From the NCBI GenBank assembly GCA_020633895.1, contig JACKCT010000001.1, positions 462,130 to 526,129 on the forward strand: 64,000 nucleotides of DNA, read 5' to 3'. Made by a program: the position numbers and the translations under genes. The notes below the pieces were generated by a model that worked only from the letters and a program-made list of their open reading frames with translations, was not told the DNA's origin and searched no databases. Shown piece after piece: positions 36,532 to 39,649 of this stretch. The stretch comes from Deltaproteobacteria bacterium (GTDB taxonomy: Bacteria > Lernaellota > Lernaellaia > JACKCT01). Position 1 is the stretch's first letter; the number at the start of each line of letters is the position of its first letter.

Positions 36532-36891
36532 CTAGGCGATGTCATCATCGTCATCATCGTCGTCGTCATCATCGTCATCATCGTCATCATCGTCATCATC
36601 GTCATCATCGTCATCGTCGTCATCATCGTCATCGTCGTCGTCATCGTCGTCGTCATCATCATCGTCGTCGTCGTCGTCGTCGTCATCATCGTCATCGTCG
36701 TCATCATCGTCGTCGTCGGCATCATCATCGTCGTCACTCGACGAATCGTCATCGGCGACAGTGTCGTCGTCGGTCGTCGAATCGTCGTCGTCGTCTCCCA
36801 GGTCGCCACAGGCGGCGGCAACCGCCAGCAGAAGGCCGAGAGCGAAAATCAGCGAGAACAAAGTCCAACGCGAAAGTTCATTCCGATGCAT
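36532..36891 (-). CDS. small lipoprotein with ~60-residue poly-Asp tail
   Basis: MHRNELSRWTLFSLIFALGLLLAVAAACGD (signal + lipobox Cys) followed by D-rich then near-pure poly-Asp; AGGAG RBS 8 nt upstream of the ATG. Confidence 0.55.
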   Translation of the reverse strand: MHRNELSRWTLFSLIFALGLLLAVAAACGDLGDDDDDSTTDDDTVADDDSSSDDDDDADDDDDDDDDDDDDDDDDDDDDDDDDDDDDDDDDDDDDDDDDDDDDDDDDDDDDDDDDDDIA

Positions 36892-36950
36892 CAATCCACT
36901 CCTGTTGCCCGTCACGGCGATCGTGACGGGGCTTGGGTTCACGACAGTTT

Positions 36951-38228
36951 TTACGGCGCGACCGACGCCGGCGGATCGCTCGCCGTGGCGAGTTCCTCGA
37001 CCCATTCCTGAAGCGACGTTCCGCCTTCCTCGATTTCGAAATAGGTGTCCGACGTGGACGGCGCATGGCCGGTGCCTTCGATGAAGAACGTGGACCAGCG
37101 GCCCGTCGGCTCGAGCAGGTTGTCGCGCAAATCCTCCAGACCCGCCGCGTACGCCTCGCCGGTGATCGGATCGCCGACCTGGAAGAAGTCGCGAATCGTC
37201 TCGTCCTCCAGGTACGAATACAGGCCGAAGGTGCTGTTCGGGTATTCCGTCGCGTTGTACTTCTGGATGTTCTCCAAGCCGTCGAACTTCGTGCCGCAGT
37301 CATCGCAGCCGGGCGGGGGCACGACGTTCCACAAGGAGCGCAGGCCGAATTGCAGCACCGGGCTGAGCACGTCGTTGTCGGCCGGCAGGGGAGCCGAGTC
37401 GTTGAAGACGTTCACGTCGTTGCCCGGGAACGCCTGGGCGAATTCCAGGAATCCCAAGTTGGTGCCGAAGCCGCCGGCACTCTGGCCGATCAGGAAGACC
37501 GTCTGTACGCCGTCGAAATACTCGCCGAGCAGGTCGGCGATGTTGCGGATGTTGATCAGGCCGACGAACTGCTGCTTGCCGGAGGCGCCTTTGATTTCCA
37601 CATCGGTCGCATTGCCCGAATGCACGTCGCCGGTGCAGTAGGGGACAAAGACATTGTGCCAACCGGAAAGCGCGCTCGTCTCGGCCGCCGCCGCGCCGCC
37701 GTCGGCGAAGACGCCCTTGGTCAGCTCCCCGGACTTGGCGGAGGTGAATTCGGGTTCGCCGAATTTTTTGGGATTGCCCGCGCAAGTGCCCGCGTCAAAA
37801 CAGGCGCCGCCACCCTGCATGAAGATCATCAGCTTGTTGGCGTTTTCCTGCAGACGCACGGCGATGCCGGTCGCCGATCCGTCGCGGCAGATGTTGCCGG
37901 GCACCGGCAGCCAGACCCACTCGCCCGCGTTTTCATCCGCGTCGGCAAACGGTCCGCCCACCGGGAAGAACGGCGCCTCGGCCGTGTCGTCGTCGCCGGT
38001 GTCGTCATCCGCGGTGTCGTCATCGGACGTATCGTCGTCGTCGGTGTCGTCGTCATCGTCATCATCGGTGATGTCGTCGTCGCCGGTGTCGTCATCGATG
38101 GACGAACTGCTGTCGTCGTCGTCATCATCGTCGCCGCAGGCCGCGCCGGCGATAGCCAGCATCAACAAGGCCGACAGGACGAATAGCAAGAACCATAAAC
38201 GGCGCTCGGCGCCAGGGGAACGTCTCAT
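36951..38228 (-). CDS. pectin acetylesterase / Notum-like (PAE family) esterase lipoprotein with Asp-rich N-terminal linker
   Basis: Lipobox AGAACGDDDDDD; GGGACFDAGTC, YCTGDVHSGN and GQSAGG (nucleophile Ser) motifs typical of the PAE/Notum alpha/beta-hydrolase family; AGGAG RBS. Confidence 0.7.
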   Translation of the reverse strand: MRRSPGAERRLWFLLFVLSALLMLAIAGAACGDDDDDDDSSSSIDDDTGDDDITDDDDDDDTDDDDTSDDDTADDDTGDDDTAEAPFFPVGGPFADADENAGEWVWLPVPGNICRDGSATGIAVRLQENANKLMIFMQGGGACFDAGTCAGNPKKFGEPEFTSAKSGELTKGVFADGGAAAAETSALSGWHNVFVPYCTGDVHSGNATDVEIKGASGKQQFVGLINIRNIADLLGEYFDGVQTVFLIGQSAGGFGTNLGFLEFAQAFPGNDVNVFNDSAPLPADNDVLSPVLQFGLRSLWNVVPPPGCDDCGTKFDGLENIQKYNATEYPNSTFGLYSYLEDETIRDFFQVGDPITGEAYAAGLEDLRDNLLEPTGRWSTFFIEGTGHAPSTSDTYFEIEEGGTSLQEWVEELATASDPPASVAP

Positions 38229-38401
38229 ACCCGTGCTCCTTTATCATCATGGGCCATGGGGCCCGGCAAAATGTCGATCGGTCTATTAAACGAGGGCTTT
38301 TAGCGCTTGTAAAGCGGAATCGCCGAAGGAATCCGCGGGGATCAACGAGAAAACGGGCGACCCGAAGGCCGCCCGTGTCGTCTCGAAACTAGGGAGAAGG
38401 G

Positions 38402-39649
38402 CTACGGCCCGACGGACGCCGGCGGCTGGTTGAGCGTGGGCGTGGCCAGCTCCGAAACCCAATCGGTGAGCATCTTGTCGCCCACTTCCATGGTGAAGTA
38501 TTCAGGCGAGGTCACGATGCCGTGGCCGGTGCCCGGCGCGATGTACACGGACCACTGCTCGGTGTCCTTGAGGACGTTGTTGCGCAGGTCGACCAGGGAA
38601 TTCTCATAAGCGTTGGCGTCGATGGCCACATCCTCGCCGTAGAGATTGCGCATCGTTTCGTCACCGGCGTAGGAGAACAGGCCGAAGGTGCTCTCGTCGT
38701 ATTCGAGGGCGATGAACTGCTGAATGAACTCCATGCCCGAGTTGCCCACGCCGCCGGTGCAGTTTTCGCAGTCCTCGGGAAGTTCGATGCCCCACTGCAG
38801 CTTGAAGCCGGTCTGCTCCAAAACCGAGAAGACGTTGTTGTCCTTGGGCATGGGGAACGAGTCGTTGAACACGCGGATGGTGTTGTCGTCGAAGGCCGCC
38901 TCGAACTCGATGGCCGCCCAGTTGGTGCCCATGCCGCCGGCGTCCTGGCCGACGATGAACACGCGCTTGAGGCCCGTGAAGTACTGGCCGATCAGGTCGG
39001 CGACATTGCGCATATTGCGGATGCCCACGTAGATCTGACGGGCTTCCACGCCCTCGGCCTTGCCGTTTTCCTCAAAGCCCACGTGCAGATCGCCCGTGCA
39101 ATAGGGGATCACCACGTTGTTCCAGTTGGCGAACTCGCTGACGTTGGACTCGGAGCCGGTGCCGTCCGAGAGGATGCCCGCGTTAAGCGACGTGTCGGCC
39201 TGCATCTGCGTCTTGCCGTACTTGGCCGGGTTGGCGTCGCACGAGTCCTTGTCGGCGCAGGCGCCGCCGCCTTGCAGGAAGATCATCAGGTCGTCCGAGC
39301 CCTCGCCCTCCTGCAGGCGCACCGCGATGCCCGTCTGGGAGCCGTCGCGGCACAGGTTGCCGACCACGGGGATCCACACCCAGTCGCCGACGTTGGCCTC
39401 GGCCTCGGAGAATGTGTCCGCGATTGTTGTGTCGTCGTCGCCCAGGTCGTCGTCGTCATCGTCGACCGTGTCGTCATCCGACGTGTCGTCGTCAGTCGTA
39501 TCGTCATCGTCCGCGGTGTCGTCGTCCGCGGTGTCGTCGTCGTCATCGTCATCGCCGCTGCTGGCGCAGGCCAAGCCCAACGCCGTCGTCGCCGCGAATA
39601 ATCCCACCAACACGATCACCCACAAAAGGGTGCGCCGTTGCCTATCCAT
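38402..39649 (-). CDS. PAE/Notum-like paralog lipoprotein with Asp-rich linker; nucleophile motif GQDAGG (Ser to Asp)
   Basis: Same architecture as 36951..38228 (lipobox LACASSGDDDDDDD; GGGACADKDSC; YCTGDLHVG) but the GxSxG Ser is Asp; GGAGG RBS before the ATG at ~39649. Confidence 0.7.
   Translation of the reverse strand: MDRQRRTLLWVIVLVGLFAATTALGLACASSGDDDDDDDTADDDTADDDDTTDDDTSDDDTVDDDDDDLGDDDTTIADTFSEAEANVGDWVWIPVVGNLCRDGSQTGIAVRLQEGEGSDDLMIFLQGGGACADKDSCDANPAKYGKTQMQADTSLNAGILSDGTGSESNVSEFANWNNVVIPYCTGDLHVGFEENGKAEGVEARQIYVGIRNMRNVADLIGQYFTGLKRVFIVGQDAGGMGTNWAAIEFEAAFDDNTIRVFNDSFPMPKDNNVFSVLEQTGFKLQWGIELPEDCENCTGGVGNSGMEFIQQFIALEYDESTFGLFSYAGDETMRNLYGEDVAIDANAYENSLVDLRNNVLKDTEQWSVYIAPGTGHGIVTSPEYFTMEVGDKMLTDWVSELATPTLNQPPASVGP

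Follow-up and report, generated by a model that had tools for sequence, protein, structure and literature searches.

When an esterase is duplicated in tandem and one copy carries aspartate where the catalytic serine should stand, is that copy a dead enzyme or an enzyme of altered chemistry? This question is raised by three consecutive open reading frames (ORFs) on the minus strand, here called A, B and C, which span positions 36,532-39,649 of a 64,000-nucleotide stretch of bacterial DNA (assembly GCA_020633895.1, contig JACKCT010000001.1, positions 462,130 to 526,129 of the forward strand). This whole stretch is referred to below as the window. The contig, 582 kb in length, belongs to a metagenome-assembled genome (MAG) deposited as 'Deltaproteobacteria bacterium', in which the products of B and C are entered, with identical sequence, as the 'hypothetical protein' records MCB9487483.1 and MCB9487484.1, respectively. 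A preliminary description of the locus had offered 'pseudo-enzyme or altered chemistry' for C. This is still the right pair of options, to which it can now be added that the substitution is unique in its family and that the gene appears to be under purifying selection.

36532..36891, minus strand: gene A, a predicted lipoprotein of 119 amino acids, starting at the ATG that follows AGGAG
36951..38228, minus strand: gene B, a predicted lipoprotein of 425 amino acids of the PAE/Notum family, with the elbow GQSAGG
38402..39649, minus strand: gene C, a predicted lipoprotein of 415 amino acids of the PAE/Notum family, with GQDAGG, Asp236 taking the place of the nucleophile Ser

It is suggested here, as a joint reading that we hold to be rather probable, that B is an active tethered esterase, C a non-hydrolytic or re-purposed paralogue, and A a tether without cargo. 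Tandem duplication of a secreted, lipid-anchored carboxylesterase of the PAE/Notum family would have given rise to B and C. With its Ser-Asp-His triad kept, B most likely acts outside the cytoplasm as an O-deacylating esterase, possibly on an O-acetylated glycan. C would have kept the fold, the disulfide cysteines, the GGGAC oxyanion-loop motif, the acid and the His while its nucleophile Ser became Asp, and would thereafter have evolved at about 1.6 times the rate of B. A non-hydrolytic role is the most likely one, for example as a partner of B in substrate binding or regulation, and changed chemistry seems the less likely outcome. All three proteins would be held, via a lipidated N-terminal Cys, on a disordered, anionic poly-Asp tether of 45-89 residues. 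This tether is a reusable N-terminal module placed before unrelated cargo domains in this group of genomes, and it likely acts as an extended charged spacer or address tag by which the cargo is held off the membrane. A would then be the tether module without a cargo.

Assignment of B and C to the PAE/Notum family of alpha/beta-hydrolases, already proposed in the preliminary description, is agreed on by Pfam, by sequence matches in the PDB and by Foldseek. Both match the Pfam family PAE (PF03283; B 1.1e-15, 58 bits; C 4.7e-21, 75.7 bits; curated cut-off 26.6), the match spanning only positions 21-185 of the 355 in the profile. C has no other Pfam match, and NCBIfam returned sub-threshold low-complexity matches only. 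In a sequence search of the PDB, Notum was the only real match (B 3e-11, C 3e-10), and its GSSAGG aligns with GQSAGG of B and GQDAGG of C. The structure was modelled for C, B being covered through its 47% protein identity to C. The AlphaFold (AF2) model, built on a 15-sequence alignment, has a mean predicted local distance difference test score (pLDDT) of 86, with most of the catalytic domain above 90, and it places Asp236 in a classic nucleophile elbow, between a strand (229-235) and a helix (237-252). Foldseek comparison of this model with the PDB gave E=3.5e-16 and a template-modelling (TM) score of ~0.6 on the target over 350-375 columns, all 50 of the matches listed being Notum. The Notum alignment and the placement between strand and helix thus identify GQ(S/D)AGG as the catalytic elbow, a point on which the earlier interpretation of C had depended.

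The triad of the plant PAEs and of Notum consists of Ser in G-x-S-x-G, Asp and His (PMC5465549). B has all three, as Ser250 in GQSAGG, the Asp of FNDS and the His of GTGH; C keeps Asp263 (FNDS) and His376 (GTGH) but does not have the Ser. In the 15-sequence alignment there is no variation at Asp263 and His376 (C numbering), at the Asp of YCTGD, in the GGG-x-C loop or at four cysteines, and C alone departs from the elbow Ser. The motifs noticed earlier (GGGAC, YCTGD, GQSAGG in B and GQDAGG in C) were all located. C is a member of the PAE/Notum family by descent and not by catalytic signature. With Notum and the plant pectin acetylesterases (PF03283, CAZy family CE13) B and C share the fold, the GGG/W-x-C oxyanion loop, YC-x-x-D, the acid Asp and the His, and all are secreted proteins with conserved cysteines; the G-x-S-A-G-G elbow is shared by B only. 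They differ in being bacterial, predicted to be lipid-anchored and preceded by a poly-Asp tether, and C differs further in its Asp for the nucleophile Ser. The plant enzymes also have NxayDxxQ and HCQ contexts that are lacking in B and C, where the acid stands in (N/D)DS and the His in G-x-x-H. No functionally characterised bacterial member of the PAE/Notum family turned up in a literature search.

The residue that sets C apart is encoded as follows.

38942..38944, minus strand: GAC codon for Asp236 of C, in the nucleophile elbow, aligned with the Ser of the Notum elbow

A HMMER search of 1.84 billion cluster representatives returned 2,339 family members at E<=1e-3, and an alignment of everything fetched comprised 267 sequences. 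At the elbow these have Ser in 259 cases, Gly in 3 and Cys in 2, and Asp solely in C; the acid Asp is present in 265 of the 267 and the catalytic His in 260. All of the 84 homologues found across 80 genome loci have Ser at this position (84/84), as do the 120 database homologues listed, bar C's own fragment P0001, where it stands in G-x-S-A-G-G (P0006 falls outside the motif pattern used, yet has Ser by alignment). In the bacterial PAE-like family a lost or changed nucleophile turns up repeatedly, at roughly 1-3%, and Asp is found only here. The other non-Ser elbows have Cys in P0143 and P0150 (GLCSGG and GQCSGA) and Gly in P0187, P0214 and P0263. Ser and Asp codons are never one substitution apart, and GAC in C differs from the AGT Ser codon of B at all three positions. 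Since the codon differs at three positions, and since GQDAGG and the linker of C are the same in three assemblies, the Asp is not a sequencing artefact.

The relationship between the two esterase genes is consistent with unequal evolution after duplication. B and C were sisters in 196 of 200 neighbour-joining bootstraps, with branch lengths of 0.333 and 0.534, respectively, so that the branch to C is 1.6 times longer. Relative-rate tests gave 55 C-specific against 28 changes when P0002 was the reference (p=0.004) and 56 against 23 with P0004 (p=0.0003), and at highly conserved columns C departs from the consensus 13 times and B 5 times. Such an excess would be the pattern expected of a tandem duplicate freed from part of the ancestral constraint. 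Two further assemblies carry the locus: GCA_020633875.1 at 99.5% DNA identity (50 differences in 10,796 bp), on a contig that ends inside C so that coverage of C stops after residue 265, and GCA_020440635.1 at 98.5% DNA identity over 3.5 kb. Over the lengths covered, the C protein is the same in the three assemblies, including the length of its linker and GQDAGG. All six nucleotide differences between C and its counterpart in GCA_020440635.1 are synonymous, for which the neutral chance is 1.3e-4 (279 synonymous and 966 non-synonymous sites), as are both of the two differences from GCA_020633875.1. Because every difference in C is synonymous, the comparison indicates that C is under purifying selection and is being maintained, rather than decaying as a pseudogene would. 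B adds a member to a known family; what is new is C, as an apparently selectively maintained paralogue with a Ser-to-Asp change at the nucleophile, and nothing in the locus overturns current knowledge. A natural swap of this kind beside an unaltered sister offers a matched pair in which lost catalysis, binding and changed chemistry can be set against one another.

The N-terminal regions of the three proteins have their own features in common. Each of the three ORFs has a ribosome-binding site, a signal peptide, a lipobox Cys and an Asp-rich segment, just as had been described. A Shine-Dalgarno sequence, AGGAG or GGAGG, can be read 7-8 nt 5' of every ATG, and the N-termini consist of a basic n-region, a hydrophobic core and a Cys (Cys28 in A, Cys31 in B and Cys28 in C). 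A permissive PROSITE-style lipobox pattern was matched in A, B and C, this call being a pattern match and not the output of a dedicated predictor; the column of the lipobox Cys is invariant across the 15 aligned homologues. The Asp tract begins 1-5 residues past this Cys.

39431..39565, minus strand: poly-Asp linker of C, 45 residues, 64% Asp, in D3-D7 blocks split by T, A or S
39566..39568, minus strand: codon for the lipobox Cys28 of C
37986..38135, minus strand: poly-Asp linker of B, 50 residues, 66% Asp, in D3-D7 blocks
38136..38138, minus strand: codon for the lipobox Cys31 of B
Within gene A: Asp-rich tail of 89 residues, 85% Asp, with a single run of 59 Asp

The run of about 60 consecutive Asp reported for the small protein is thus confirmed at 59, while the blocks in the esterase linkers, put at D6-D8 in the preliminary description, are D3-D7. 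The sequences after the Cys are C-G-D-D-D in B, C-G-D-L-G-D-D in A and C-A-S-S-G-D-D in C. Mature A would contain 76 acidic and no basic residues, and mature B and C 81 acidic each against 16-18 basic. In the AlphaFold model of C, the linker region (residues 30-75) is disordered, with pLDDT below 50. Tandem-repeat periods in the tracts are 3, 9, 15, 33 nt and so on, all multiples of three and all within coding sequence. No further ORF in the window has Asp tracts of this kind, and a predicted metallo-beta-lactamase-fold lipoprotein encoded at 26443..27432 is among those that do not.

Poly-Asp linkers of this type also occur beyond the locus, and the tether is modular and spread across related genomes. 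Among the homologues of B and C, the nearest belong to MAGs that carry the label FEN-1099 or Candidatus Lernaella or to related 'Deltaproteobacteria/Myxococcales' bins, and several of them have the same lipobox and poly-Asp N-terminus. FEN-1099/Lernaellota is accordingly the likely lineage of the uncultured diderm bacterium to which the locus belongs. The same tether precedes unrelated cargo in the following proteins.

L004: a penicillin-amidase-like protein of 941 amino acids
L087: a CarboxypepD_reg protein of 684 amino acids, with Asp runs of more than 30
Related genomes: further lipoproteins of 251-382 amino acids

In L087, from a related genome of 45% GC, two lipoprotein genes (12309..14363 and 14967..16115) encode Asp runs of more than 30 residues after the lipobox, one product matching CarboxypepD_reg and the other nothing in Pfam; A is thus not the only protein with very long homopolymeric Asp. 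Other predicted lipoproteins at the same loci, among them an RND adaptor, a lipocalin-like protein and beta-propeller proteins, are free of the tract. In L004 the PAE-like gene (5812..7008) and the amidase-like gene (7176..10001) have in common a cassette of ~170 nt with ~85% DNA identity, which takes in the signal peptide, the lipobox and the first part of the linker, the catalytic domains being unrelated. This common cassette implies that the N-terminal module has been copied or homogenised between genes, by duplication or by gene conversion. A comparison of signal-peptide-region DNA between A and B scored 19, against a mean of 8.6 and a maximum of 16 in shuffles; this similarity is too weak, and cassette duplication among A, B and C is not claimed.

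Outer-membrane lipoproteins normally include a disordered N-terminal linker (bioRxiv 10.1101/2021.01.05.425367), and a few acidic residues between positions +3 and +5, as K-(D/E)2 or Q-A-(D/E)2, suffice for surface exposure in Bacteroidota (PMC5080379). The tract described here shares with these systems an acidic or disordered sequence right after the Cys, on a subset of lipoproteins that bear enzymes. It differs from the Bacteroidota signal in its length of 45-89 residues, in its composition (64-85% Asp, without K or Q) and in belonging to another phylum. The poly-Asp tether is not described in the Lernaellota paper (PMC9324843), and a text search on poly-Asp lipoprotein linkers likewise gave no prior description. 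Recurring modular tethers of this type bear on how lipoproteins are spaced and sorted outside the well-studied phyla.

Gene A consists of a signal peptide, Cys28 and the Asp-rich tail, with no globular domain, and 76 of its 119 residues are Asp. Its tail is encoded by a simple repeat.

36541..36807, minus strand: (GAY)n tract of A, with a 9-nt GAT-GAT-GAC periodicity (Tandem Repeats Finder: period 9, 21 copies, 83% matches)

This periodicity suggests that the repeat may have expanded recently. GAT codons make up 43% in A, against 15-32% in neighbouring genes. There is no Pfam match for A, and a homologue search with its low-complexity sequence gave nothing beyond near-identical strains. In GCA_020440635.1 the first 57 codons of the A ortholog have three synonymous and no non-synonymous changes, with the same signal peptide and lipobox; the protein is of 81 amino acids against 119 and has a different end, and the gene lies on a contig of 1,548 bp. 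There (L089, 1176..1548) an SSB gene that is absent from the window comes after the A ortholog, where the window has a terminator and a thioredoxin-like gene; either the region is rearranged or the contig was mis-assembled at the (GAY)n repeat. The shorter tract may likewise be an assembly collapse or a mis-join. The tract length of C is constant in three assemblies and that of B in two, including GCA_020440635.1. An artefact is excluded for the tracts of B and C, and the length given for the A tract is provisional. Of the length-variable tracts that had been proposed, those of B and C are constant, and for A variation is possible but depends on the doubtful 1.5-kb contig. In the same assembly, the short-read contigs L089 and L090 end or begin at one place in B (~37710..37770, codons 153-172), where they read KKFGEAEFNSATTGELTRA and KKFGESEFTSAKSGELTKG, respectively; the discordance points to strain heterogeneity or to a surface loop of B that is a recombination hotspot.

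C starts 46 nt downstream of a gene for a membrane-anchored spermidine-synthase-like (SpeE-like) protein. This gene is the last of an upstream operon (39698..44296, minus strand) that encodes AdoMetDC, two DUF4178 proteins, a membrane protein of 71 amino acids, a DUF350 protein and the spermidine-synthase-like protein itself, which has 504 amino acids and an N-terminal multi-pass membrane domain. The terminator search called nothing between this polyamine-type operon and C, and a membrane-bound route to polycations beside polyanionic lipoproteins is suggestive. Across the 80 other genome loci there was no case in which SpeE, DUF4178, DUF350 or AdoMetDC lay within 6 kb of a PAE homologue (0/80), and the neighbourhoods of the closest homologues, P0002, P0003 and P0004, have nothing in common. 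A conserved functional link to the polyamine operon was rejected, as the adjacency is absent from the 80 other PAE loci; it is unproven and probably coincidental.

Several points weigh against the joint reading of B as an active esterase, C as a non-hydrolytic paralogue and A as a tether without cargo. The strains compared in the test for purifying selection on C are very close and supply only 6-7 substitutions. In the lipobox of these proteins, G or A occupies position -3 in place of the canonical L, and lipidation rests on the pattern match. The census of tethers took in a few tens of kilobases per genome. At 0.61, the GC content at third codon positions is atypically low in A (0.78-0.90 in the comparison genes), and since no homologues turned up beyond near-identical strains either, A may be a young or non-functional ORF. 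Finally, Asp serves as the nucleophile in some alpha/beta-hydrolases (ESTHER paper, PMC3531081), and since C also keeps the His and the acid, some catalysis by C is conceivable. On this account C would be a working enzyme with Asp236 as nucleophile and with His376/Asp263 activating water on a covalent intermediate, a chemistry unlike that of B, directed for example at an epoxide, a halide, another activated carbon or a different acyl group. The haloalkane dehalogenases, which have this fold, do use an Asp nucleophile (PMC3531081), G-x-D-x-G-G fits the small-x-nucleophile-x-small-small pattern of the elbow, and the retention of the acid, the His and the GGGAC loop in a protein apparently under purifying selection points in the same direction. 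C indeed shares with the haloalkane dehalogenases and epoxide hydrolases the Asp at the elbow and a His-acid pair; it is related to them at the superfamily level only, with PAE as its sole Pfam match, and as the one Asp case in ~350 homologues it is a single protein and not a clade of such enzymes. In dehalogenases and epoxide hydrolases the nucleophile Asp is followed by Trp and an HGxP motif is present, whereas C has Ala after the Asp and no HGxP-type motif. Engineered Ser-to-Asp mutants of serine esterases are, moreover, normally inactive, which counts against catalysis by C. Nor is the retained His a proof, being often kept in non-catalytic members (PMC3531081). We consider an Asp-nucleophile enzyme improbable. 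A non-hydrolytic C would have counterparts in the neuroligins and thyroglobulin's C-terminal domain, non-catalytic alpha/beta-hydrolases in which the scaffold was likewise kept, the nucleophile lost and the protein maintained (PMC3531081). Those are eukaryotic adhesion or hormone-precursor proteins, whereas C is a recent tandem duplicate beside a sister predicted to be active, and its replacement residue is itself a potential nucleophile.

For the tracts, and for A in particular, other explanations compete with that of a spacer or address tag. A might not be a functional gene at all but a leftover or duplicated N-terminal cassette with an expanded repeat, translated or not. Its want of a cargo domain and of detected homologues, its low GC content at third positions, its richness in GAT and its 9-nt periodicity would fit such an origin, as would the cassettes demonstrably copied between genes in L004. 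Yet A has a good Shine-Dalgarno sequence and its own terminator, its ORF is open in the second strain without a non-synonymous change in the 57 codons compared, and ~180 nt of mixed GAC/GAT remains in frame; a non-functional A is possible, if on balance somewhat unlikely. That the tracts are on/off contingency loci, as the preliminary description suggested in calling them phase-variable, or else assembly artefacts, is extremely improbable. The different lengths of A in the two assemblies and the breaks of two short-read assemblies within the locus might be taken in this sense, but slippage in repeat units that are multiples of three alters length and cannot shift the frame, the tracts of B and C are constant in every covering assembly, and the architecture is common to homologues from many independent assemblies. 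The acidic stretch past the Cys could instead be a sorting signal to the cell surface, analogous to the export signal of Bacteroidota lipoproteins, where a short acidic sequence is enough (PMC5080379). This would agree with its presence in only a subset of predicted lipoproteins (the RND adaptor and the lipocalin-like lipoprotein are without it) and with the hydrolase-like or surface-type nature of all tract-bearing proteins that have a recognisable domain. The phylum is another one, however, Lys and Gln are absent, and the tract is ten times longer than such a signal needs. Some homologues begin C-D-D-D, and in Escherichia coli an Asp at +2 leads to retention in the inner membrane, which again counts against sorting to the surface, so that we find this explanation fairly unlikely. 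Unlikely, too, is the view, which goes back to the preliminary description, that the tails mainly bind Ca2+/Mg2+, mineral or polycation surfaces, with A as a dedicated cation-binding surface lipopeptide. The strong acidic excess in the mature proteins would suit it, and the polyamine-synthesis operon 46 nt upstream of C would supply a polycation partner, but the tether recurs on unrelated cargo in related genomes and so is not specific to the locus, PAE homologues in the 80 other loci are never beside polyamine genes, and the closest neighbourhoods are dissimilar. Cation binding is possible and is compatible with a spacer role, and the 59-Asp run and the tether-only lipoprotein are rare objects that lend themselves to tests of cation or polyamine binding. 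Taking these ideas together, the transferable cassette of signal peptide, lipobox and poly-Asp in this lineage (probably FEN-1099/Lernaellota and relatives) might be a dedicated system by which secreted enzymes are displayed on the surface or sorted, with B active, C its partner and A a lipopeptide that binds cations or polyamines. We regard the combination as quite unlikely. If it were true, the system would parallel the Bacteroidota export signal in function while being built differently, C, dead or with an Asp nucleophile, would be a substrate-binding partner of B, and a length-variable A would condition the cell surface.

Returning to the expression signals of the locus, two terminator-like structures bear on how A, B and C may be transcribed.

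38353..38376, minus strand: terminator-like hairpin and T run after C, with a 10-bp stem containing 8 GC pairs, followed by TTTCTCGTT
36459..36484, both strands: terminator-like hairpin, bidirectional, lying between the ends of A and of a convergent thioredoxin-like gene

A search for terminator hairpins called none in the interval between B and A. This interval does contain a perfect 9-bp inverted repeat, CCCGTCACG...CGTGACGGG (36908..36930, minus strand), between the stop codon of B and the Shine-Dalgarno sequence of A. It is without a T run and is 100% conserved in a second strain, and it might form a hairpin for mRNA processing or translational control. On the plus strand, the antisense of the A tract makes up an ORF of 181 amino acids, rich in poly-Ser (36539..37084), which overlaps the 3' end of B. 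It has no Shine-Dalgarno sequence and its start is not kept in a second strain, and it was judged to be a by-product of the repeat in A. The convergent gene downstream of A (34092..36428, plus strand), which has the bidirectional terminator in common with A, encodes a protein with a CHWCH thioredoxin-like motif that presumably resembles the DUF255/YyaL family.

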